A DNA stretch of 64,000 nucleotides from Candidatus Omnitrophota bacterium (GCA_029571225.1 JAKPTF010000097.1:64417-128416); one strand, 5' to 3'; counted from the stretch's first letter, positions 13,462 through 24,365 are shown. Notes: a model not told the origin generated them from the sequence alone. Made by a program: numbers and translations.

Positions 13462-14361
13462 ATGAAAAAAGAGAAGAGCTTTCCGGTTGTATCTCTGGTG
13501 ATCCTTATTGTCTTCGGCCTTTTGTGCTTTATCGGCGGAGCCCTGAGCTCAAATATCCTTAACAAGCGCAAGGTCAACGCCATACAGGCGCGTTTGACCG
13601 AGTGTGAGAACAAATTCCTTTCGTTCAGCAGGCAGGTGATAGGCAATATCGAAGCCGCTGTCCGGATATCCGAAGGCGTATCCAATGTCTGGCATGAGTC
13701 CGTCAAGCGCGGAGAAGATTTCAATGGGGCCATGGTTAAGTTCCTTGAGGAGAACAAGGGGCGGATTTCCGATATGAAGCTCAAACACGACCTCATTGAG
13801 ATACAGGTCGCCGAACTGAAAAAATACAAAAAAGAATCCCGGGATACCTTCGATGCGGTCATGGAATTGTACGATGTTTACAAAAAGATGTACGAGCTGG
13901 GCATGAGCCCTGAGGGAACCGTCGAGGGTTTTGACAGCAATCTCAAGAGCCTGGTTGAAGTGTATAGCCATGCGCAGTCGAAGTTGAGCGTTTATATGCC
14001 TGAACTTAAGAAACCGGCCGGACTTGAGCCGGATGTCCCGGCTGTGCAGACGCCTCCGCAATCCCAGGATGCCCCAGCGGCCCAGGCTCCGGTAGTCAGC
14101 GCCGTTCAGCCCTTAACGGCCGGACCCAGCCAGCAACCTGCCCTTACGTACGATCAGAAAATCAAGCGGATTTCTAAAAACATGACTTATCGTCAAGTCG
14201 AAAGCGAGGTCGGCGTACCCCGCGATAAGAAAAAGGATTCCCGCGGCAATGAGGTTTGGTTTTATCCATCGGAAAAGACGGGATTCAGGAACTTGGTATA
14301 TTTCGCCTCGGGCAAGGTCTTGCAGACAAAAAACCTTCCTTTAAACAGCAGCCTCGACTGA
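13462..14361 (+). CDS. membrane-anchored hypothetical protein with a Pro/Gln/Ala-rich linker
   Basis: An ORF with an N-terminal TM helix (VVSLVILIVFGLLCFIGGAL), a coiled-coil region, a PQ-rich linker and a small C-terminal domain. The start is uncertain (13411 or 13462). Confidence 0.45.
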   Translation: MKKEKSFPVVSLVILIVFGLLCFIGGALSSNILNKRKVNAIQARLTECENKFLSFSRQVIGNIEAAVRISEGVSNVWHESVKRGEDFNGAMVKFLEENKGRISDMKLKHDLIEIQVAELKKYKKESRDTFDAVMELYDVYKKMYELGMSPEGTVEGFDSNLKSLVEVYSHAQSKLSVYMPELKKPAGLEPDVPAVQTPPQSQDAPAAQAPVVSAVQPLTAGPSQQPALTYDQKIKRISKNMTYRQVESEVGVPRDKKKDSRGNEVWFYPSEKTGFRNLVYFASGKVLQTKNLPLNSSLD

Positions 14362-14386
14362 TCGCCATACCATCAGCAATTTTGCC

Positions 14387-14414
14387 TTGACTTGGGTTTC
14401 ATTTAATGTAAAAT
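14387..14414 (+). promoter_or_regulatory. candidate tRNA promoter (TTGACT-16 nt-TAAAAT)
   Basis: TTGACT at 14387-14392 and TAAAAT at 14409-14414, about 50 nt upstream of the tRNA. Confidence 0.4.
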
Positions 14415-14464
14415 AAACTCTGCTCAAGTCAGTTTTGAAAATACGTTCTTTGTTTTTGATCGAT

Positions 14465-14540
14465 TCCCCCTTAGCTCAGCCGGTAGAGCGAGTGGCTGTT
14501 AACCACCAGGTCCGAGGTTCGAGTCCTCGAGGGGGAGCCA
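14465..14540 (+). tRNA. tRNA-Asn (anticodon GTT)
   Basis: Cloverleaf folded by hand: acceptor TCCCCCT/AGGGGGA, D arm GCTC-AGCCGGTA-GAGC, anticodon arm AGTGG-CTGTTAA-CCACC, variable loop AGGTC, T arm CGAGG-TTCGAGT-CCTCG, discriminator G, encoded CCA. 76 nt in total. Confidence 0.92.
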
Positions 14541-15951
14541 TCTTGGAAGGAGCCGTATCCCTAGGGATACGGCTTTTTTCTTTTTCTGCCTCAAGTTTCG
14601 CGCGGTTTGCGGCCGCCCGCGCCCGGCCGCAAACCCGAGCATTTTCAAAAGGGGCGGGATTTTTAAAGCTTTGCTTCTCGTCGCTAACTGGTCGGCAAAG
14701 CAGATTTATTTGGATTGTTTCTTTAGAATAGAGAATGTCTTTAATGTATTTCTGCATTATCAAGCCCTGCTCAATTTTGCTCGCCTTTTCTAAGTAGTTG
14801 ATCAAGTTTTTTAGCTTCTCTTGAACGCTTTCCGGGTCTATTTCAGAGCATTCTTTAGTTAGTTCGAGTCCTTTTCGGACGCGCGAGCTTTCGACATTGA
14901 TCTTGAAGATTAAACTATCTATATAACTGCTATCCTGGGAAATTCGCTTAAGATTATCTACTACAAACCGTTCTAATCTATCCGCGCTCACCTGCCGTGT
15001 TGAACACGCTTGCCAGTCGTGCTTAAATGTTTTCGTACAGCGGTAATAGTAATATCGCTTCATAGATTTCTTGTTAGTATGAGCGGGCGTCATCTTAGAG
15101 CCACACTCCGCGCAATTAACCAAACCACCAAGCATATAATCTTTGTAGAGACGTAATTTTCGCTTCTTGTCGCCGAAAAACTGCTGAACATGATTAAATA
15201 GCTCATCGGATATAAGCGGCTGGTGCAAACCGGAGTAAACCTTACCGCTAAACTTCACTTTGCCTAAGTAAACTTCGTTCTTAAGAATACTCTGCAAATG
15301 CGCTTTGCTGAAAGGTAAGTCTTTATCATCAAAAATATGCTTGCTCTTCAAAGTCTGGTAAGTGTCCGCTAAACATCCTGTCCCGGCAAAAGTCTCAAAA
15401 ATGGTTTTTAATTTTTGAGACTTTTGCCCATCAGGCACCAGCCGTTTATCTCTGGTTATATATCCATAAGGGATATTTCCGCCGTTCCACATACCTTTGT
15501 TGGCCCGTTCAAGCAGCTTGTCGCGGGTTCTTTCGCTGGTTAACTCCCGCTCAAACTGCGCGAAAGTAAGCATGATGTTGCGCAAAAGCCGCCCTGCTGG
15601 CGTAGAGGTGTCAAAGCGTTCTGTGATAGAGATAAAGTCTACCTTATATTGCTCGAAAACTTCCATCAGATAATAGAAATCTTTCGGCGAGCGCGTCAAA
15701 CGATCTATCTTGTAAACCATAACAGTGTTAATTTTGCCTTCTTTAATCTCCCCTAACATCTGCTGAAGTGCAGGACGTTCTAAATTAGCACCGGTAAAGC
15801 CAGCATCACTATACACCTTATAAACAAAAAGATTCTCCTGGCTATTAATGAAAGATTTAATTTTTTCTTCTTGAGCCTGGCAGGAGTTAAATTCTACTTC
15901 GGCTAGGTTATCTGTAGATACCCTAGTATAGATAGCGCATTTAGCTTGCAT
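14476..15951 (-). CDS. large serine recombinase (resolvase/invertase N-domain + recombinase domain + Zn ribbon + coiled coil)
   Basis: N-terminal AIYTRVSTD catalytic-Ser motif, YKIDRLTRS, GRLLRNIMLTFAQFERE, a Zn ribbon (CAECGSKM...YYRC) and a coiled coil. Recognisable recombinase sequence ends near 14710. The ORF continues through the repeat and about 65 nt of the tRNA antisense strand. Confidence 0.9.
   Translation of the reverse strand: MQAKCAIYTRVSTDNLAEVEFNSCQAQEEKIKSFINSQENLFVYKVYSDAGFTGANLERPALQQMLGEIKEGKINTVMVYKIDRLTRSPKDFYYLMEVFEQYKVDFISITERFDTSTPAGRLLRNIMLTFAQFERELTSERTRDKLLERANKGMWNGGNIPYGYITRDKRLVPDGQKSQKLKTIFETFAGTGCLADTYQTLKSKHIFDDKDLPFSKAHLQSILKNEVYLGKVKFSGKVYSGLHQPLISDELFNHVQQFFGDKKRKLRLYKDYMLGGLVNCAECGSKMTPAHTNKKSMKRYYYYRCTKTFKHDWQACSTRQVSADRLERFVVDNLKRISQDSSYIDSLIFKINVESSRVRKGLELTKECSEIDPESVQEKLKNLINYLEKASKIEQGLIMQKYIKDILYSKETIQINLLCRPVSDEKQSFKNPAPFENARVCGRARAAANRAKLEAEKEKSRIPRDTAPSKMAPPRGLEPRTWWLTATRSTG
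14534..14708 (+). repeat. left copy of the 175-bp direct repeat (attL-like)
   Basis: Matches 21324-21498 at 169 of 175 positions. The first ~118 bp are identical and all 6 mismatches lie in the last 57 bp. It begins with the last 7 nt of the tRNA (GAGCCA...). Confidence 0.9.
14551..14590 (+). terminator. rho-independent terminator of the tRNA
   Basis: Perfect 11-bp stem AGCCGTATCCC-TA-GGGATACGGCT (14551-14574) followed by TTTTTTCTTTTTC. Confidence 0.8.
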
Positions 15952-16056
15952 TTTTACCTCCTAGCGTTAAAATATTATCAAAGTACAAGCAAAATAATAA
16001 AAATAATACTAATATTATAATGTTAGCAATATATTGTAAATACGTCAAGGGATTTT

Positions 16057-16251
16057 ATGATTTCGAAGAACATAAAGATTCTGAGGAAGCAGCTTAAATT
16101 GTCACAAGAAGAATTGGCAAAGAAAGCTGGAATTACTTATAGCACTTTAATAAAACTCGAATCTGGAGCCAATCTTAACCCGACTTTAGAAACGGCGAGA
16201 AAGTTAGCTAGGGCCTTAACTGTTTCTATAGATGAATTAGCAAAAGAATAA
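16057..16251 (+). CDS. XRE-family helix-turn-helix protein (64 aa)
   Basis: LRKQLKLSQEELAKKAGITYSTLIKLESG is a classic HTH_3 pattern. The gene is divergent from the recombinase across a 105-bp AT-rich spacer. Confidence 0.85.
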   Translation: MISKNIKILRKQLKLSQEELAKKAGITYSTLIKLESGANLNPTLETARKLARALTVSIDELAKE

Positions 16252-16261
16252 CGAGGCTGAT

Positions 16262-16498
16262 ATGGATAAAAAAGAGATTAAAGCAGTTCACGATGACGAT
16301 TTAGAAACGCTTTTATCTAATCTCAACATTCTCAATGATGTAAAGAGCGGCAAGAAGAAATGCAGATTCTGCGGGTGCGTAATAGACTTAGATAATTTAG
16401 AGGCCATTTTCCCTGACTCAGGAGATATTAAGTTTGTTTGCAGTAATCCAGAATGTTTAAAACAGTTTTATTTATTTCTAGAGAAAGAGAATGTTTAA
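16262..16498 (+). CDS. small Zn-ribbon-like protein (78 aa), unknown function
   Basis: CRFCGC...CSNPEC gives two Cys pairs. GAGG lies upstream of the ATG. The stop TAA abuts the next ATG. Confidence 0.55.
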   Translation: MDKKEIKAVHDDDLETLLSNLNILNDVKSGKKKCRFCGCVIDLDNLEAIFPDSGDIKFVCSNPECLKQFYLFLEKENV

Positions 16499-17578
16499 AT
16501 GGAAACTGTGATTCGATATGTTCTGGCGATATTCGGAAGTAGCGGATTTATCTTATTAATAATTTTCTTAAACCCTCAGAAAGCTGAGATTTGGGCATCA
16601 ATTTTCTGGAAACTACTTCGGACATTTTTTAAAAAGGCAGAAAAGAAATATATTCAACATGATATCCAAGGAAGAATTAATGATTACAATAGAATTCTTG
16701 GAAAAGAAGTAAAAAATTACGAGCCAACCGGAATAAAGATTAGCTGGATTGAAGAATCTGAAAGACAGACAAGTTTTTTTAAGGACAATGCTATAATTAT
16801 AAGATTGCGAAAAAGTGAGAATCAAAATAGAAACTTTGTCTTTGCAAGTCTGACTTTCATTTCCCAAGTAGTATTAAAGAAAGCCAAACGTTATATCTCG
16901 CCTTCACAAAAAGAATCTATTGATCTTTATGTGGCAAAAAAGTTATTTGCTAAAGAAAAGCCTGAGGTTATTGATCAGTTTGTAAACGATTTTCTAATTC
17001 CAAAAACTGAAAATAACAAAAAGGTATCTGAATACTTTGATAAGTATAGTTTAATAGACAAAGTTGGTTTGTTTTGGCCTGTTTTCATTCAAGAGCTAAT
17101 ATTCTTAGGTAATAAAGTTTTTGGTAAAAGACGGGAAGATATTATTGTTACCGAAGTTAATGGACTCGTCGAATTTCTTAAGACTTATTCTGAAAGAGAA
17201 TTAGGCGATCAAAAGAATAAACTAACTTTCAATGGGAGGTATTGTCGCTTCGGGATTATGATCGTAGCAAAATCTTCCAAAGTTCGGACTGGAGATCTGA
17301 AGCCTTATTTGAAATACATGCTGAAGTTGCTTAATGTCGGAATTGAGAATATTTATATAATTGGTTCTTCACAACAAAATAACGAAGCTTTTATGAGAAA
17401 TATATGTCTTGCAGCAGAAGCCGAATTAAATGTTCAATGTTTTTATGAGAAAGAATACTCAGCGCATATAATGATTCAAGGGAAAAGAACCAAATGTGAT
17501 AATCTGTTAATTATAGTGAGAAGAAAAGATTTGCAGTATCATTATGATTCTGAAGACCAGGCAAAACTAAGCAAATAA
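16499..17578 (+). CDS. 359-aa protein with an N-terminal TM helix, no family recognised
   Basis: A long ORF with island-like AT-rich codon usage, a TAAATG junction with the upstream gene, and an N-terminal hydrophobic helix (VLAIFGSSGFILLIIFL). I recognised no catalytic motif. Confidence 0.6.
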   Translation: METVIRYVLAIFGSSGFILLIIFLNPQKAEIWASIFWKLLRTFFKKAEKKYIQHDIQGRINDYNRILGKEVKNYEPTGIKISWIEESERQTSFFKDNAIIIRLRKSENQNRNFVFASLTFISQVVLKKAKRYISPSQKESIDLYVAKKLFAKEKPEVIDQFVNDFLIPKTENNKKVSEYFDKYSLIDKVGLFWPVFIQELIFLGNKVFGKRREDIIVTEVNGLVEFLKTYSERELGDQKNKLTFNGRYCRFGIMIVAKSSKVRTGDLKPYLKYMLKLLNVGIENIYIIGSSQQNNEAFMRNICLAAEAELNVQCFYEKEYSAHIMIQGKRTKCDNLLIIVRRKDLQYHYDSEDQAKLSK

Positions 17579-17598
17579 ATCCCTTTTCTTTAGAAAAG

Positions 17599-17922
17599 TT
17601 AAAAATCCCTCCCCTTTTGAAAATGCTCGGGTTTGCGTCCGCCCGCGCCCGGCTGCAAACCCCGCTATTTTGGTCGCCGCCGAAAAAAATGGTCATGCTG
17701 CAATCAGCATGACCATTGAAAATATGGCTCCTCTTGGATCAAATCAACAAACCATTCCAATAATCTTGCCAAATTCCATTCATAGTTGTAAGAAGAAGGA
17801 TTTATAGGCGCCGCGCCTTGGGGCGCTCCCGCATCTCCAGCAAAAATTATAACGGCAGGCGGTTGGGTGGCGGCAACCGCCTGCCGATCGCGTGGAAAGC
17901 GTTCAAACTGCGTGGCAAGCCC
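17599..17922 (-). repeat. inverted, diverged third copy of the att-like module plus GC-rich blocks
   Basis: The reverse complement aligns in blocks with 20918-21455. Shared blocks are TTAAAAATCCC..CCTTTTGAAAATGCTCGGGTTTGCG, the GAGGAGCCAT..TTACA..TATAAATCC segment, GGCGCGGCGCC, ATGCGGGAGCGCCCC, the 12-bp-stem hairpin, and GGGCTTGCCA.GC.GTTTGAACGCTTTCCACGCGA. Confidence 0.8.
17682..17715 (-). terminator. rho-independent terminator for the minus-strand R-M operon
   Basis: On the minus strand this reads ATGGTCATGCTG-ATTG-CAGCATGACCAT followed by TTTTTTT, downstream of the last gene of the operon (which ends at 17940). Confidence 0.6.
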
Positions 17923-17939
17923 TTCACATATTCCAGTAA

Positions 17940-18485
17940 CTATCTTGATAACGCTTTTATCTGTTTTATAGCTTGCTTCCAGTTTTTGACAAATTTTATC
18001 TTTTTGCCAATCCTACTCCAAGGATACTCAAATAATAGCACTGGTATGCCTTGGGCTTCTAAAATCCTAGCGACCTCCAAACTGTCTTCAATAACAATAT
18101 CGCATTTCTTCATAGAAGATATTTTATCCTTCAAGCCATTAGTCAAAATTAATCTATCAAAAGGAATTTTATTTCTTCTAAGCCAAGTGAGCGTATCTTT
18201 GTGAAATTCTTTTTTTCTGCTACTTATTAAATAAATGCGATTCTCTCTAGCCAAAATTTCTAAAGCCATTTTACTGTTTTTAACTAGTGAAAGGTCGCTA
18301 TAGATTTTGTTACTTTCAACCTCTTTCCATAATTTTTCGATATTTTCGTGGCTAATATCTATATTCTTTTCAAAATCGTAACTGACTATATCCTCAACCT
18401 TGCATTTACAATACTTATTGAGATAAGGCAAGAATGAGCTCACAAAATCAGCTATAATTCCATCAATATCTATTCCAATTTTCAT
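17940..18485 (-). CDS. HAD-superfamily 5'(3')-deoxyribonucleotidase-like protein (NT5C family)
   Basis: N-terminal IGIDIDGIIADF (the DxDGxxADF nucleophile motif), a later ISSRKK, DIVIEDS and a PW segment, as in NT5C/YorS-like nucleotidases. Confidence 0.65.
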   Translation of the reverse strand: MKIGIDIDGIIADFVSSFLPYLNKYCKCKVEDIVSYDFEKNIDISHENIEKLWKEVESNKIYSDLSLVKNSKMALEILARENRIYLISSRKKEFHKDTLTWLRRNKIPFDRLILTNGLKDKISSMKKCDIVIEDSLEVARILEAQGIPVLLFEYPWSRIGKKIKFVKNWKQAIKQIKALSR

Positions 18486-18493
18486 GATAGAAG

Positions 18494-19018
18494 TTATTTA
18501 GATACTAGTTTGAAATGGATAATGTAGATTGTTAAAGCGCCAAGAAGTAGTGGGATAAAATAATAAACGCAGAGGATGACTCCGGCGCTAGTGCGGGATA
18601 CAGATTTGATAATGGAAGTAGTTAGACCAAAAAAGCCTAATTTCTTATATGCCTCGTCATTATCGATTTTTTCAGTAAATTTAACCGATCCCAGCAACAA
18701 TTTATAGTAGTAGAAGAAATCAATGAGCCATTGACAGGCAAGAAAGATTATCCCGATGGTCAGTATTACTATACTTATGTGAACCTTGCGTCCTAATAAT
18801 TGAGCATATAAATTTAAATCTTTTAATGAAATAGTTGCCGCGCCAAAAACCGCAAGGATAATTGATATTACAGTCGTACGCATTTTAATAAGCAATTCAT
18901 TAAAATGCATCTGTGAATCTAACGCCATCTTGTATAGCTCAAGGTCGTGTTTTAGTTTGTCGTGGGGAGGATGGTTTTTCTTATCCTTGTTTTCTTCCAT
19001 GCTTGCCTCAAACCGCAA
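18494..19018 (-). CDS. polytopic membrane protein (3-4 TM), unknown function
   Basis: A charged N-terminus followed by hydrophobic segments (VISIILAVFGAATISL, ISIVILTIGIIFLACQWLIDFF, AGVILCVYYFIPLLLGALTIYII). It is packed between the REase and nucleotidase genes with 1-8 nt gaps. Confidence 0.55.
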   Translation of the reverse strand: MRFEASMEENKDKKNHPPHDKLKHDLELYKMALDSQMHFNELLIKMRTTVISIILAVFGAATISLKDLNLYAQLLGRKVHISIVILTIGIIFLACQWLIDFFYYYKLLLGSVKFTEKIDNDEAYKKLGFFGLTTSIIKSVSRTSAGVILCVYYFIPLLLGALTIYIIHFKLVSK

Positions 19019-19019
19019 T

Positions 19020-19931
19020 TTATTTTCCGAGAATTTCTTTTAAAACGCCTGCGCTAGCTAGAGATAAATTTAAAACAAAGTCCATATCATTAAAAGCGTT
19101 AGTAATTTGATGCGCTCCTTTTTTCCAACCCGGTCCTTCTGTTAGCCAGATAAAACCCCATTTTGCTTTTGCTAATTCATTCTTTCTGTTTGTGTAGGAA
19201 TCAACAATTTCTTGGGGTTTCGATCCCTGCCCATCATAGTAATTAACTTCGAGGTTAAAGAATTTCTTATCTGCTATAATAACATAATCAAATTTTCTGT
19301 TCAAAAGACGGTCAGGAACCGCGACTCCGAATTTCTCTTTTATATGCTTAAACGTTTTCTGTTTGACAACTGAAATGCTTTTAATCTTATCTAGAATTGG
19401 ATCTACTAAGGATTCCATTGAAGTGCCACTTCTATTTTTTCTGGCATTAGTGTCTATTCCAGCTTCTAAGCCAAGAAGATAATCACGCAAATTCTTAATT
19501 TTGAATTCAGAAAAAAGCTTTAGGATGCCTGCTTTATCACAGAAAACAACTATGTCTTCGATGTTTTTAGCGGTAAGGTTTGTCTTTTTGCTAAAATCGA
19601 ATTCTTTTACAGTTTCAGCAGGTCTGGCGGGATCGTCAATAACGGCTATCTCTAAGTCCCTAACAGCGATTATTAACGGGATCACGGGCAGAACTTCAGG
19701 ATTCTTCTTGAGAATTTCTGAAAGCTTATTTCGAGGATCGCTTGAGCCAACTAGATAATTCAGGATATTGATTTCGTAATCATATTTCTGAACATTCTTT
19801 TTGACCTTATCCCAGGCGACGAAGTAGGAGTATGTCTTATTAGACGTCATCAAAGTTTCTTGGAATTTCTTAACCAGTTCGTCAATGTTATTAACCTTAT
19901 AAAACTTCTTATATAAAGATAAATTAGCCAT
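19020..19931 (-). CDS. type II restriction endonuclease, DpnII/MboI family (predicted GATC)
   Basis: Collinear matches to my recollection of DpnII (DpnB): PEVLPVIPLIIAVR, G.EAGIDTNARKNRSG..ME, RKFDYVI, LEVNYYDGQGSK, FIWLTEGPGW. Confidence 0.85.
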   Translation of the reverse strand: MANLSLYKKFYKVNNIDELVKKFQETLMTSNKTYSYFVAWDKVKKNVQKYDYEINILNYLVGSSDPRNKLSEILKKNPEVLPVIPLIIAVRDLEIAVIDDPARPAETVKEFDFSKKTNLTAKNIEDIVVFCDKAGILKLFSEFKIKNLRDYLLGLEAGIDTNARKNRSGTSMESLVDPILDKIKSISVVKQKTFKHIKEKFGVAVPDRLLNRKFDYVIIADKKFFNLEVNYYDGQGSKPQEIVDSYTNRKNELAKAKWGFIWLTEGPGWKKGAHQITNAFNDMDFVLNLSLASAGVLKEILGK

Positions 19932-20811
19932 TTTTAGAGTGAATTTCGTCTTTTAGGCGTTTTAAAGACGTTTCAAGATATTCTTTTTCGAGTTCAATCC
20001 CAATAAATTGACGACGTTCTTTAAGCGCAGCTATGCCGGTAGTCCCGCTGCCAGAAAAAGGATCAAGCACAATATCGCCAGGCCTGGTAGATGCTAAGAC
20101 TATTCGGTCAAGTAATTGTAGCGGTTTTTGAGTAGGATGTTTCCCGTATTTTTTTTCATCAGTACCAGGAGCCTTAATAGACCAAAGACTTAGCATCTGT
20201 TTATTATTGTTCATTTCCTTCATTAATTCGTAATTAAAATAATGCTTGCTGTCTTTATTTTTGGCGGCCCAAATCACAGTTTCTGTTGAATGGGTAAAAT
20301 ACCTGCAACTTAAATTGGGCGGGGGGTTAACTTTAAACCAGGCAATGTCATTCAAGATTTTATAATTCAGATCCTGCATTGCATATCCCACAGCAAAGAT
20401 TATATGTGCAGTGCCGGAAACCCAAATTGTGCCGTTCGGAGTCAAAACGCGTTGACATTCGCGTAACCAGCGCAAGGTGAAGAGGTAATTTTCTTCTTTT
20501 CCTTTTGAAACATCCCATTTCCCTTTATTCACAGATACTTGTTTACCTGCATGGCAAGTAAATCCACCATTTGATAAGAAATATGGCGGATCAGCAAAGA
20601 TCATATCAATCGAATTCTCTGGGAGCTTAGGTAAAACATCAAAGCAGTCGTTGTTAAAAAGAATAAGACTGTGTTTTTTGTCTTCAAAGTAAGGTTTGGC
20701 AGGAACATCTTTGACTAATTCAAAAATGTCTCTGTGCGAACTGTGCTTTTCTTTAGTTAAAGTCGGCATGTTAGGATAAGTTTGAACTTTGAGTATAAAA
20801 TCAGGTATCAT
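19924..20811 (-). CDS. beta-class N6-adenine DNA methyltransferase, DpnA (M2.DpnII)-like
   Basis: IDMIFADPPYFLSNGG, NPPPNLSCRYFTHSTET, GKHPTQKP and LDPFSGSGTTG are near-collinear with DpnA. The preferred start is the ATG at 20811, which has GGAGG 7 nt upstream. The gene overlaps the REase start by 8 nt. Confidence 0.9.
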   Translation of the reverse strand: MIPDFILKVQTYPNMPTLTKEKHSSHRDIFELVKDVPAKPYFEDKKHSLILFNNDCFDVLPKLPENSIDMIFADPPYFLSNGGFTCHAGKQVSVNKGKWDVSKGKEENYLFTLRWLRECQRVLTPNGTIWVSGTAHIIFAVGYAMQDLNYKILNDIAWFKVNPPPNLSCRYFTHSTETVIWAAKNKDSKHYFNYELMKEMNNNKQMLSLWSIKAPGTDEKKYGKHPTQKPLQLLDRIVLASTRPGDIVLDPFSGSGTTGIAALKERRQFIGIELEKEYLETSLKRLKDEIHSKNG

Positions 20812-20917
20812 TTTAGCACCTCCAATATTGAGCGTCAATATATCTTCTACTACTCCTACTATAATAGACGCAAGAAAACCAAAAATCTAACATGTTTATT
20901 TTACTATTAGGTCCGCG

Positions 20918-21323
20918 GGGCTTGCCATGCGGTTTGAACGCTTTCCACGCGAGAGGCTCGGATACCGCCGCCCAGAGGAAAAATTGAAAGTTTTCTCTCG
21001 TTGTAAGCTGTCTTAGGCGGTAAGCGGACGAACCCCTCGTTAATTGAGAGTTTTCTTTGGCGTTATTTGTTGCGGTGAGGACGCATGCGGCAGGCGGCTG
21101 CCGCCACCCAGCCGCCTGCCGCAGCCGAGCCGCACACCGCACGAAAGCCGGCACGAAGCGAGCGGCCAAGCGAGCGCCCAGCGAGGCCTGCGCCCACGCA
21201 GGCCGAGCGGTGCTCGGGAAATGCGGGAGCGCCCCCAGGCGCGGCGCCTATAAATCTTTCTTCTTACAGCTATGAATGGTATTGGGCAAGACTATTGGAA
21301 TAGTTCGATGCTCTAATGGAAGA
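20918..21323 (+). repeat. GC-rich non-coding segment homologous (inverted) to 17745-17922
   Basis: Conserved blocks are shared with the 17.6-17.9 kb copy and separated by copy-specific spacers. It contains a 12-13-bp-stem hairpin at 21087-21122 and ends in a tRNA-3'-end-like AAGAGGAGCCA. Confidence 0.75.
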
Positions 21324-21498
21324 GGAGCCATCTTGGAAGGAGCCGTATCCCTAGGGATACGGCTTTTTTCTTTTTCTGCCTCAAGTTTCGCGCGGTTTGC
21401 GGCCGCCCGCGCCCGGCCGCAAACCCGAGCATTTTCAAAAGAGGCGGGATTTTTAAGGCTTTGCTTATCGTCGCCAACCGTTCGGCAAAGCAGATTTA
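21324..21498 (+). repeat. right copy of the 175-bp direct repeat (attR-like)
   Basis: See 14534-14708. It includes an identical copy of the terminator hairpin (21341-21364) and of the GC hairpin (21395-21424). Confidence 0.9.
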
Positions 21499-21812
21499 AC
21501 GAGTCCTTTGTGTCCAATGGCCGTTGGAGATGCACACCACTCAAAGCAGATACCCGAAAGAACGGATAAAGAGGGTCATTTAACGGTAAATTGCGGGATG
21601 AATTGTGGAATCGGGAAATCTTTGACACATTACTTGAAGCAAAAGTACTTGTATATCGCTGGAAGTAAGAATATAATACAGTCAGGCCGCATAGTTTACT
21701 GAATTACCGGCCTCCTGCTTTAGAGTCTATCAAGTAACGATAACCGGGAGAATTTGGATTTATAATCATTGGAAACATTTAAGGTCCCGCCTTTAAATCC
21801 GGAAAAACAATC

Positions 21813-24365
21813 ATGGCAAACGGCAAACAAAATCTTAATTTTGACTATATCAGCTGTCCTCAAGAAGAGCTTTTTAAGCAGTTGCTGACATCGCAAAAGG
21901 GCCTTACCGATGACGAGGTCTCAAATCGCCTTGAGGAATACGGCTACAATGAGCCTGCCCGGAAGAAGAAACGCACAGTAATCTTTCAAATCCTTTCTAA
22001 ATTCCTCAATCCCCTTGTTATCGTTCTTCTGATTATTGCCGGGTTTTCTTTGTTTTTTGGAGAGAAGATCAGCGCCATCTTGGTCATCGCTATGGCCTTT
22101 ATCAGTGTCTTTTTGTCTTTTATTCAAGAGTATCGTGCGGGTAAAGAGGCTGAGAAATTAAGCGAAATGGTGCGCACCACCGCCACTGTTTACCGCAATG
22201 GGAAACCTAAAGAAATCAATATCCGGGAGATCGTTCCCGGGGATATTGTCGATTTGTTTGCGGGAGACATGATTCCGGCTGACTTAAGGATTATCTCCTG
22301 CAAGGATTTGTTTATCAATCAGGCATCGTTAACCGGAGAGTCTTTTCCCATTGAGAAAACATCTGAAGCCATAACTTCGACTAAGCGTTCTCCCGCTGAT
22401 CTTACCAATATCGCCTTCATGGGCTCAAGCGTGGTGAGTGGAACAGGTCTTGGCGTTGTGGTAAAGACCGGGGTTTCCACTCAATTCGGAGAAATTTCCC
22501 GCAAACTTGCCACGATAACGGTCGCCAGCAGTTTTGATAAAGGTATAAACAGGTTTACTTGGCTGATGATCCGCTTCATGGTTGTGTTAGTGCTTGCGAT
22601 ATTCGGCATCAATGCTTTTAACAAGGGCAATGTTATTGAGGCGTTGCTATTCGCTCTTTCGGTTGCTGTTGGCCTCACTCCGGAAATGCTTCCGATGCTG
22701 GTGGCGATTAACCTTTCCAAGGGCGCCATCGCCATGTCCAAGAAGGATGTCATCGTCAAACGCCTCAATGCCATTCAAAATTTCGGGGCAATGGATGTCC
22801 TTTGCACGGATAAGACCGGCACGTTAACGATGGATAAAATCATGCTGGAGAGGCATTGCGATGTGGTGCGCAAGGAAGATGATGACGTCCTGCGCTTTGC
22901 CTATATAAACAGTTACTATCAGACCGGCTTAAAAAATATCTTGGACAGAGCGATCTTGAAGCACGAAAAACTTGTGGTGAAGCAATACAAAAAGGTTGAT
23001 GAGGTGCCGTTTGATTTCTCCCGCAGGCTTATGTCAGTTGTTGTCGAGGATAGTGGCAAGCATAGGTTGATTGTTAAAGGGGCTCCGGAGGAAATATACA
23101 AGCGTTGCACGAAATTTGAGCTTGAAGGAGACATCCTTGATTTGGGCGCAGGGAATTTGATCCTTCCTGAATTAAAGGCAGAATACGATAATCTTAGCGC
23201 CGAAGGTTTCCGAGTGTTAGCTATTGCTTATAAGGATTTTGACCAGATCAAGGATAGATACACAAAAGATGATGAGCAAGACTTAATCCTCAAAGGGTAT
23301 ATCGCTTTTCTTGATCCGCCAAAGCCTACGGCAAAAAAGACCATTGAGACGCTAAAAAGCCTTGGTATAGATTTCAAGGTTTTAACCGGCGACAATGAAC
23401 TGGTGACCAAAAAGATTTGCGGTGAAGTCGGTCTTGATGTTAAGGGCTTCGCTACCGGCGAGCAAGTGGAAAAAGCCAGCGACCAAGAACTACGGGAATT
23501 AGTTAAGAAAACGACTGTGTTTGCCCGCTTGTCACCGCTTCAAAAGGAGCGGGTCATTCACGCATTACATGACAATAATCATATTGTCGGGTATCTCGGC
23601 GACGGCATCAACGACGCCGCAGCTCTTAAAACAGCGGACGTGGGGATCTCGGTGAATAACGCTGTTGATATCGCCAAGGAATCGGCGGATATTATTCTCT
23701 TGAAGAAAAGCCTTTTAGTCTTGGAGGATGGCGTTCTTGAGGGCAGAAGGACTTTCGGCAATATTCTTAAATATATCAAGATGGGCTCAAGCTCGAATTT
23801 CGGCAATATGTTCAGCATGACCGGGGCGAGTATTTTCTTGCCGTTTCTGCCGATGCTTCCTATTCAGATACTCTTGAATAACTTTCTTTATGATATTTCG
23901 CAGATCGCTATTCCTTCGGATGAAGTGGACAAAGAATATCTAATGAAATCCCGGCCGTGGAATGTGGGATACATCAAGAAGTTTATGCTCTTTATTGGGC
24001 CTGTGAGTTCGGTATTTGATTTTATTACCTTTGGGGTGTTGTGGTTTATTTTTCACGCCCAACAGCCGTTGTTCAATACCGGGTGGTTCTTAGAGTCGCT
24101 TTGCACGCAGACGTTAGTTATTCACATTATCCGCACCGGCAAGATCCCTTTTATTGAAAGCAAGCCCAGCCAGTTTTTGATGTTCACGTCTATTTATATC
24201 GTCACAATCGGTCTTGTTCTGCCGTTTTTACCGTTGGGAAAATATTTCGGTTTCGTGCAACCGCCGCCGATGTATTTCCTTGCCTTGATTATTATTGTTA
24301 CCGTGTATCTATTTACAGTTCAATTTGTGAAAAGCTGGTTTATTAAAAAATATGGATACGAATAA
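21813..24365 (+). CDS. mgtA: magnesium-translocating P-type ATPase
   Basis: CTDKTGTLT phosphorylation motif, TGDN, GDGINDAAALK, and the MgtA-typical LNNFLYDISQIAIPSDEVDKEYL. 850 aa. Confidence 0.9.
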   Translation: MANGKQNLNFDYISCPQEELFKQLLTSQKGLTDDEVSNRLEEYGYNEPARKKKRTVIFQILSKFLNPLVIVLLIIAGFSLFFGEKISAILVIAMAFISVFLSFIQEYRAGKEAEKLSEMVRTTATVYRNGKPKEINIREIVPGDIVDLFAGDMIPADLRIISCKDLFINQASLTGESFPIEKTSEAITSTKRSPADLTNIAFMGSSVVSGTGLGVVVKTGVSTQFGEISRKLATITVASSFDKGINRFTWLMIRFMVVLVLAIFGINAFNKGNVIEALLFALSVAVGLTPEMLPMLVAINLSKGAIAMSKKDVIVKRLNAIQNFGAMDVLCTDKTGTLTMDKIMLERHCDVVRKEDDDVLRFAYINSYYQTGLKNILDRAILKHEKLVVKQYKKVDEVPFDFSRRLMSVVVEDSGKHRLIVKGAPEEIYKRCTKFELEGDILDLGAGNLILPELKAEYDNLSAEGFRVLAIAYKDFDQIKDRYTKDDEQDLILKGYIAFLDPPKPTAKKTIETLKSLGIDFKVLTGDNELVTKKICGEVGLDVKGFATGEQVEKASDQELRELVKKTTVFARLSPLQKERVIHALHDNNHIVGYLGDGINDAAALKTADVGISVNNAVDIAKESADIILLKKSLLVLEDGVLEGRRTFGNILKYIKMGSSSNFGNMFSMTGASIFLPFLPMLPIQILLNNFLYDISQIAIPSDEVDKEYLMKSRPWNVGYIKKFMLFIGPVSSVFDFITFGVLWFIFHAQQPLFNTGWFLESLCTQTLVIHIIRTGKIPFIESKPSQFLMFTSIYIVTIGLVLPFLPLGKYFGFVQPPPMYFLALIIIVTVYLFTVQFVKSWFIKKYGYE

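Follow-up and report, generated by a model that had tools for sequence, protein, structure and literature searches.

The current analysis examines a four-gene operon found within a 64,000-nucleotide stretch of Candidatus Omnitrophota bacterium DNA (GCA_029571225.1 JAKPTF010000097.1:64417-128416), the whole of which is referred to here as the window. The operon encodes a DNA adenine methylase, a DpnII-family endonuclease, a protein with three transmembrane (TM) helices, and a HAD phosphatase, and we interpret it, with a probability of roughly 0.6, as a two-layer anti-phage cassette residing on a tRNA-Asn-linked, recombinase-bearing island. Restriction would constitute its first layer, followed by a Metis-like abortive alarm that is marked by the cassette's own methylase. 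An earlier interpretation made without database searches, the sequence-only reading, had left the last two genes as an unexplained addition to a restriction-modification (R-M) pair. This view could not be maintained, as the TM and HAD genes form a widespread module homologous to type II Metis, which mostly occurs without DpnII or any other endonuclease.

Metis has been described in a November 2025 preprint only (Osterman et al., bioRxiv 10.1101/2025.11.05.686725) and is the first defense shown to sense degradation of the host genome through a methylated mononucleotide. Its effectors are triggered by N6-methyl-dAMP (m6dAMP), which is freed as lytic phages degrade Dam-methylated host DNA, and infected cells are killed upon the appearance of methylated nucleotides. 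The type I effector MisA is an NAD+ diphosphatase, while the type II effector MisC is a 3-TM protein with a predicted cytosolic m6dAMP pocket and a predicted octameric pore, and mutation of a leucine in this pocket abolishes defense. The type II partner MisB is an HAD_2 phosphatase converting m6dAMP to the nucleoside m6dA; it is dispensable for defense and prevents the toxicity of basal m6dAMP. Type II defense is lost in a Δdam background, added m6dAMP is toxic, and phage denA mutants escape (all from bioRxiv 10.1101/2025.11.05.686725). Protection against T7 by the MisB-MisC operon of E. coli has been reported (Rousset et al. 2022, PMC9122126), and the genes of that locus are annotated as misB and misC in RefSeq E. 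coli genomes. Type II Metis is also listed under the synonyms Rst_Hydrolase-3TM (DefenseFinder) and Hydrolase-TM (PADLOC), the latter name tracing to the Rousset et al. study.

Several lines of evidence place the 3-TM protein of the window within the MisC family. It matches PADLOC model PDLC03009 'Hydrolase-TM' (4.9e-12), which corresponds to E. coli MisC (control match 7.5e-141), just as the PADLOC hydrolase model PDLC03008 corresponds to E. coli MisB (6e-198). By BLASTP, it shares 32% identity with E. coli MisC over 128 amino acids (aa; 6e-13), and hhalign aligns its family profile to E. coli MisC with 99.3% probability (E 3.1e-20) over 159 columns, which is nearly the full length. All 113 TM open reading frames (ORFs) of the loci that we fetched were likewise detected by E. 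coli MisC. Residues Q30, H32, F33, N34, R41, L102, V106, and T127 are invariant in the window family, E. coli MisC, and a Legionella homolog, yielding the pattern Q-x-H-F-N..R, L..V (in LLLGxV), T. Hydropathy indicates three hydrophobic segments, and an AlphaFold2 (AF2) model with a mean confidence score (pLDDT) of 80 contains three TM helices, with the conserved motifs lying on helix extensions at one side of the membrane, predicted to be the cytosolic side. At the level of sequence, the protein is a MisC homolog, and by analogy with type II Metis, we propose that it is an m6dAMP-gated membrane effector. The sequence-only reading had offered two roles for the membrane protein, exporter or abortive-infection effector; the latter fits the MisC homology, whereas nothing points to the former. 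A fold search of the model against the PDB returned no significant match (best E = 1.6), and the model resembles neither of the folds suggested previously, SLATT or transporter. A weak match to Pfam 8xMP ("octameric membrane protein"; 0.0083, below cut-off) was discarded, since E. coli MisC has no match to 8xMP, and a literature search on the 8xMP name yielded nothing relevant.

At E <= 1e-3, 1,563 of 1.84 billion cluster representatives (50% identity) belong to the MisC family, many of them from Omnitrophota and Bathyarchaeia, far from the Proteobacteria in which Metis was studied. No member of the window's MisC subfamily was present in IMG/VR or among GenBank phages, and plasmids yielded two weak matches only. 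Some MisC proteins also carry a 100-230-aa N-terminal extension lacking any Pfam match (L035/L036/L006, in which the MisC ORF is 343 aa, as well as P0073, P0077, and P0086). In L035, an Eco57I-type methylase and a T5orf172/ResIII helicase lie immediately upstream of the extended MisC, which is not followed by a HAD gene. Such an extension could act in place of the phosphatase or serve as an additional sensor.

The second component of the putative alarm, the phosphatase, is recognized by its frequent proximity to MisC. We fetched 107 loci with MisC relatives, which together with the window island reduce to 93 non-redundant groups at 90% identity. An NT5C-type gene adjoins MisC in 45 of 83 informative loci; in 44 of these it comes immediately after MisC in the same orientation, and in the other one it is fused. 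An HAD of family PF12710 occupies the same position in 6 loci and a MisB-type HAD does so in 2. Fusion proteins join MisC to either NT5C (L021, P0119) or HAD_2 (P0212). It is therefore evident that two unrelated HAD families fill the same slot beside MisC, and by this pattern of gene neighborhoods the NT5C-type HAD is a dedicated MisC partner. Viewed from the NT5C side, the neighbor of close homologs (55-58% identity) is MisC or a gene of similar size, and that of a distant homolog (34%) is ruvA. Other neighbors of MisC recur as well. Loci L051 and L054 encode a DprA-like (DNA_processg_A) protein directly upstream of MisC (-1), and two calcineurin-like Metallophos proteins occur among the neighbors of MisC in metagenome-assembled genomes (MAGs); these are possibly alternative partners or MisA-like genes.

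The HAD protein itself is assigned to Pfam NT5C (PF06941; 17940-18485, minus strand) with 59.9 bits against a cut-off of 24.8 (3.9e-16), as the sequence-only reading had anticipated. A PDB search with the single sequence returned nothing, and a family profile was required to detect 3bwv (6.5e-9) and human mdN (1.4e-3). The same two structures are the top Foldseek matches of its AF2 model (pLDDT 88) with TM-scores of 0.71-0.79, and aspartates D6, D8, D129, and D134 are invariant in the NT5C-type family. The protein is 181 aa long and begins with MKIGIDIDGIIADF. Its similarity to E. coli MisB is nil by BLASTP, with an hhalign probability of 0.9%, and it has no PADLOC match; given that it also belongs to Pfam NT5C rather than HAD_2, the phosphatase is not a MisB ortholog. 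By analogy, we propose that it is a functional counterpart of MisB, dephosphorylating basal m6dAMP.

The organization of the operon is as compact as the sequence-only reading had described, with all four ORFs found tightly packed on the minus strand in an operon-like arrangement (17940-20838). The methylase (19924-20811) is 295 aa from the ATG at 20811, and its reading frame stays open up to a TTG at 20838. It overlaps the endonuclease gene (19020-19931; 303 aa) by 8 nt. The MisC-family gene (18494-19000) encodes 168 aa from an ATG preceded by GAGG, although an alternative TTG at 19018 would yield the 174 aa proposed earlier; the accompanying estimate of three to four TM helices is now settled at three, not four. 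Depending upon the start codon, the gap behind the endonuclease gene is 1 nt (TTG) or 19 nt (ATG), and the HAD gene begins 8 nt past the MisC-like stop codon. Gaps of 1-19 nt leave no space for separate transcription signals between the genes, and from this layout the four genes are predicted to be one transcription unit. At its end, the previously noted terminator (17682-17715) coincides with a terminator-like hairpin with a T-run in a consensus scan (17688-17717, minus strand), but it is not the only one. A GC-rich hairpin of 13 pairs (10 G-C) with a T-rich tail, also a consensus match only, is found at 17853-17886 (minus strand), 54 nt beyond the NT5C stop codon. Totals of terminator- and promoter-like sites in scans of the sequence did not exceed those expected from shuffled sequence. 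A promoter-like site at 20838-20810 was not relied upon, as it overlaps the likely methylase start codon.

The R-M half of the operon is readily classified and in good agreement with the sequence-only reading. The beta-class N6-adenine methylase is DpnA/M.LlaDCHIB-like (Pfam N6_N4_Mtase 2.5e-58, PADLOC MTase_II 1.9e-97), contains a DPPY motif, and is 57% identical over 250 aa to the second (beta-class, DpnA-type) methylase of LlaDCHI from pSRQ700. The endonuclease (Pfam DpnII, PF04556, 5.6e-86; PADLOC REase_II 8.5e-74) covers positions 3-277 of the 278-position Pfam model and shares 33% identity with R.LlaDCHI of pSRQ700 (5e-43, tblastn). Both enzymes are presumed from these relationships to be GATC-specific. 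The host flanks contain 346 GATC sites in 56.8 kb, with no avoidance of GATC (observed/expected 0.99). As noted earlier, a DpnM/Dam-type alpha-class partner is missing, no further methylase ORF being present between the island repeats. The claim that classical DpnII cassettes lack the last two genes was also borne out: the order is methylase-methylase-endonuclease on pSRQ700 (LlaDCHI) and methylase-endonuclease on Psychrobacter pYP14d, with nothing after the endonuclease gene, and no plasmid carrying a DpnII-family endonuclease had a MisC match.

What would connect the two halves is the methylase. The sequence-only reading had proposed to examine whether the two additional genes are conserved together with R-M genes, and the answer depends upon which R-M gene is considered. 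Among the 93 non-redundant MisC loci, only 2 contain DpnII-family genes, so there is no co-conservation with these endonucleases, whereas the association with adenine methylases is strong. Pfam scans of 278 neighboring proteins identified 16 N6_N4_Mtase, 5 D12, and 3 Eco57I-type methylases. Of 451 genes located no more than four positions from MisC, 28 encode methylases, versus 2 of 289 further out in the same loci (odds ratio 9.5, p = 7.6e-5), a comparison whose bias is weighed below. The methylase genes peak at positions -2/-1 on the same strand. Among loci with enough context, 21 of 51 have an adenine-type methylase within four genes. In the subclade of the window MisC (>=50% identity), 9 loci extend 2 kb or more upstream, and 8 of these have such a methylase. 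The methylase partners in this subclade belong to at least five kinds, namely DpnA-like with or without DpnII, AlwI plus two methylases, Eco57I-type plus helicase, D12, and plain beta-class, and this variety among 8 of 9 loci implies repeated independent capture. The association is the very link that the Metis mechanism predicts.

The methylase partners found across the MisC loci are diverse. They include AlwI with two methylases (L037, L055), type III Mod plus Res (L015, L026), a methylase-Mrr fusion (L022), Eco57I-type methylase plus helicase (L035, L038), an MmeI-like type IIG enzyme (L071), DUF1156 with SNF2/PLD (L046), D12 methylases (L011, L042, L065), and a methylase cluster with a ParB fusion in L093 (also L009, L105, L106). 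DPP[YF] is present in all plain beta-class methylases that are not ParB-fused, and the other partners (D12, N6_Mtase/Eco57I, type III Mod, DUF1156) are adenine-methylase classes. Orthologs of the window methylase, with 77% and 73% identity, accompany MisC and NT5C in L007 and L044, respectively; neither locus was found to contain a DpnII-family endonuclease, and their 203-aa and 363-aa proteins, encoded between the methylase and MisC, have no significant Pfam or PADLOC match. The ParB-fused L093 protein and the methylases clustering with it (L009, L042, L065, L076, L105, L106) have HPPY at motif IV rather than the usual D/N/SPPY. In these loci, small proteins of 174-215 aa (c7, c9) lie between the methylase and MisC, and no recognizable endonuclease is present. 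Protein clusters c5, c7, and c9, which all occur in this intervening position, gave no significant Pfam or PADLOC match, with c5 reaching a weak PDDEXK_11 E of 0.0013, below cut-off. The HPPY loci may be orphan-methylase plus MisC systems. Separately, L031, from a Dehalococcoidia MAG, contains a second, independent DpnII-family endonuclease and beta-class methylase beside a distant MisC homolog (251 aa), in this case with the R-M pair convergent with MisC and not upstream of it.

Beyond the window, a broader proposition is finely balanced in our estimation. MisC-type Metis modules could be routinely hard-wired to an adenine methylase of their own at the 3' ends of many kinds of R-M operon (DpnII, AlwI, type III, type IIG, Eco57I-like, and ParB-fused or D12 orphan methylases), with the methylase doubling as the writer of the danger signal and the unrelated NT5C family having been recruited convergently into the role of MisB. 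The window cassette would then be a self-contained and mobile example.

Based upon these features, a sequence of events can be envisioned for the cassette. In the first layer, the beta-class methylase would place N6-methyladenine (m6A) on GATC, and the endonuclease would cut incoming unmethylated GATC. The second layer would be triggered by a phage that escapes restriction and degrades the chromosome to mononucleotides, upon which the methylated GATC sites would release m6dAMP. The MisC-family protein would presumably bind this nucleotide on its cytosolic face and oligomerize into a pore, thus aborting the infection. In healthy cells, the NT5C-type phosphatase would remove the trickle of m6dAMP arising from normal repair and keep the effector silent. 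The cassette methylase would accordingly write a single m6A mark that serves both self-protection and the alarm. Since this methylase is encoded on the same transcript and mobile island, the alarm module would bring its own signal writer and should function in any host, even one without Dam, a point of importance in lineages like Omnitrophota, where the presence of a Dam-type methylase is not a given. The homologies, the gene packing, the MisC + NT5C pairing, and the recurrent proximity of MisC to adenine methylases are observed directly, and the remaining elements of this scheme (the m6dAMP ligand, the pore, protection by the phosphatase, and specificity for GATC) are extrapolated from the homologous systems of E. 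coli and Phyllobacterium.

A number of observations weigh against this interpretation. Firstly, the methylase seeds were drawn from MisC-proximal genes, which biases the proximal-versus-distal comparison and its odds ratio. R-M genes are also the commonest defense genes and generally cluster with other defense genes, and part of the enrichment could be ordinary co-location within defense islands. Secondly, many MisC + NT5C pairs (e.g. L040, L069, L010) have no methylase nearby, indicating that the linkage is not obligatory, while subclade members L035, L037, and L038 have a methylase and no NT5C gene. Thirdly, the window subfamily is only ~25-32% identical to validated MisC proteins, and its ligand could consequently differ. 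The phosphatase not being a MisB ortholog, its substrate is likewise assigned from family membership alone. Lastly, the island is known from one Omnitrophota population, all copies being at least 99.7% identical.

Some of these same points would be expected if the operon simply joins two independent neighboring systems, which are co-transcribed, with the Metis-like module using any host m6A and having no special dependence upon the cassette methylase. The general clustering of defense genes and the lack of a nearby methylase in most MisC + NT5C pairs with sequence context both fit such an arrangement, as do the reliance of validated Metis systems upon host Dam and the presence of a third, unrelated candidate module (a 78-aa plus 359-aa pair) on the same island. 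However, mere adjacency does not readily account for the 9.5-fold enrichment of methylases close to MisC with a same-strand peak at -2/-1, nor for the repeated capture of at least five methylase kinds implied by 8 of 9 subclade loci. It also fails to explain why methylase orthologs persist beside MisC + NT5C where the DpnII endonuclease is absent, and gaps of 1-19 nt within one transcription unit are similarly hard to reconcile with independence. We consider this explanation unlikely, albeit the main rival to the two-layer reading.

The two-layer cassette must also be compared with an addiction module, in which a MisC-like toxin and an NT5C-type metabolic antitoxin would mainly stabilize the island or strengthen the post-segregational killing exerted by the R-M pair. 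In a cell that lost the cassette, the endonuclease would cut the chromosome, which would then be degraded, and the m6dAMP so released would elicit killing by MisC. Such a role would suit the known capacity of R-M pairs for post-segregational killing, the toxicity of MisC in the validated system when MisB is missing, and the position of the cassette between inverted repeats on a mobile, recombinase-encoding island. Yet loss of the whole operon would take MisC along with it, and the homologous systems have demonstrated anti-phage phenotypes; we regard this scenario as quite improbable. Least credible of all is the model of the sequence-only reading, in which the NT5C-like enzyme acts on bulk deoxynucleoside monophosphates (dNMPs) either to block their recycling by phage or to deplete the pool while the membrane protein exports nucleosides or is an unrelated abortive effector: NT5C-family enzymes are indeed dNMP phosphatases, nucleotide-depleting defenses are known, and the gene shares an operon with an endonuclease, but the TM protein is a MisC homolog having three TM helices and no transporter fold or family match, the pair mostly occurs without any endonuclease, and the Metis phosphatase is dispensable for defense, clearing basal m6dAMP only to prevent self-toxicity and neither draining dNMP pools nor hindering nucleotide reuse.

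When examining the genomic setting of the operon, it is evident that it resides in a distinct 6.8-kb low-GC island (GC 0.32-0.41 versus 0.52-0.55 in the rest of the window). A rubrerythrin encoded in the flanking DNA is identical to HOU36209.1, in keeping with a Candidatus Omnitrophota MAG as host. The island is bounded by two 180-nt direct repeats on the plus strand, the left one (14529-14708) starting 12 nt inside the 3' end of tRNA-Asn (14465-14540) and the right one (21319-21498) being 96% identical to it. Direct repeats of 180 nt are unusually long for a serine-recombinase element. The large serine recombinase (14476-15951, minus strand; Resolvase 1.9e-38, Recombinase 2.3e-11, Zn_ribbon_recom 5.5e-15) also matches NCBIfam CcrB/XisF-like models below their cut-offs. 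Its ORF runs through the left repeat and lies antisense over tRNA-Asn, and as a result the right repeat likewise encodes a peptide resembling the recombinase C-terminus (…NLLCR.V.D.KQS.KNPA.FENARV…). The island recurs at >=99.7% identity in five other metagenome contigs, two of which (L003, L004) contain an IS256-type (Transposase_mut) insertion at the 5' end of the recombinase gene, corresponding to window position 15927, which probably immobilizes the island. These two contigs were considered as a second genomic context and rejected, since they are the same island with a transposase in its recombinase gene and hence provide no independent evidence.

The four-gene cassette is itself bracketed by GC-rich inverted-repeat arms, located at 17599-17922 on the left and 20918-21456 on the right, the latter overlapping the start of the right direct repeat. 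In inverted orientation, the segment 17599-17838 matches 21217-21456 at 75% identity, and shorter inverted pairs join 17853-17893 with 21081-21121 and 17883-17922 with 20918-20957. The bracketing repeats thus measure ~240-320 nt and match at 75-94%, and their outer parts are inverted, diverged versions of the att-like direct repeat. Two explanations are suggested: the cassette may be a module, acquired separately or capable of inversion, upon which the serine recombinase acts, or two elements may have integrated in opposite orientations at the same type of site. Further copies of these inverted repeats were absent from the 64-kb window, and an Rfam scan of 14000-22000 found tRNA alone, the GC-rich arms fitting no known RNA family.

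The remainder of the island consists of a plus-strand trio encoding a helix-turn-helix (HTH) protein (16057-16251), a 78-aa protein, and a 359-aa protein. The HTH protein was considered as a controller of the R-M genes, given weak PADLOC control-protein matches only, but this was judged unlikely because its gene is the first of the 78-aa/359-aa operon on the opposite strand and lies 3.7 kb away from the start of the methylase. The 78-aa protein (Zn-ribbon-like Cys pattern) and the 359-aa protein (N-terminal TM helix) form a conserved pair at 16262-17578 (plus strand) that lacks a family assignment. The latter has 37 homologs, and in three other contexts (L116, L118, L120) a 79-80-aa gene is located directly upstream of it. 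One of these pairs adjoins a TIR_2 protein, another is inserted between the methylase and endonuclease of a HinfI-type R-M operon, and the third neighbors NERD and BglII/C5-methylase/Vsr genes. Judging by such neighbors, the pair looks like an uncharacterized defense-island module. None of the eight proteins of the island had a Metallophos or PUA match, and hence no MisA-like gene was found on the island. Just beyond the right repeat, at ~21600-21720, inspection by eye revealed the C-terminal end of an IS3/rve-type transposase (…EAKVLVYRWK.EYNTVRPHS…), a remnant that lies upstream of an mgtA-like P-type ATPase gene (21813-24365).

Both the components and the principle of the proposed cassette are already known from type II Metis (Rst_Hydrolase-3TM) and DpnII-type R-M. 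Not described in the published accounts that we compared are the replacement of MisB by an NT5C-family phosphatase, the MisC-then-phosphatase order and the fusion proteins, and the presence of MisC modules inside R-M operons that supply an adenine methylase. Several implications can be drawn. Osterman et al. predict Metis systems with their own methylase, although only operons of MisA and a methylase (MisD) are listed, as "putative type III" (Discussion, Fig. S9; bioRxiv 10.1101/2025.11.05.686725), and an R-M-embedded MisC would extend this prediction from MisA to MisC. The window and 22 other methylase-linked loci offer concrete, clonable candidates for such MisC effectors. R-M methylases may commonly serve two defense layers at once, and the phosphatase "safety catch" can apparently come from a non-homologous HAD family. 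Since the NT5C-type gene escapes the PADLOC hydrolase model, a caller needing both PADLOC models would presumably not call this variant. Through the MisC family, the reach of Metis-like systems would also extend into Omnitrophota and Bathyarchaeia, well outside of the Proteobacteria.

The relationship of the window cassette to known systems can be summarized from four comparisons. Compared to the DpnII, LlaDCHI, and MboI cassettes, it shares a DpnII-family endonuclease, a beta-class methylase 57% identical to M.LlaDCHIB, and overlapping methylase and endonuclease genes, whereas it has one methylase instead of two, lacking the alpha-class DpnM/Dam-type partner, and continues past the endonuclease gene with two additional genes that appear to be co-transcribed. 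With the NT5C family, represented by human mdN/cdN and S. epidermidis 3bwv, the phosphatase shares a Pfam score above cut-off, the DxD nucleophile, the motif IV aspartates, and the fold; it differs in belonging to a dedicated subfamily that is nearly always encoded right after, or fused to, MisC, and its proposed substrate would be a methylated dNMP rather than bulk pyrimidine dNMPs. Putative type III Metis resembles the cassette in encoding an effector together with its own DNA adenine methylase, a design that would be independent of Dam. The effector there is MisA (PUA plus calcineurin-like NAD+ diphosphatase) in place of MisC, and here the methylase is part of a complete R-M pair. Lastly, type II Metis has in common with the cassette a homologous 3-TM effector with invariant residues on the predicted cytosolic face, a small HAD phosphatase in the same operon, and carriage by a mobile element, which is a P4 satellite in E. 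coli and a recombinase island in the window. Unlike type II Metis, the phosphatase here is NT5C (PF06941) and has no detectable similarity to MisB/HAD_2 (PF13419), and MisC precedes the phosphatase, the reverse of the E. coli order. Furthermore, E. coli relies upon chromosomal Dam, whereas the pair in the window occupies the 3' end of an R-M operon with an m6A methylase of its own.

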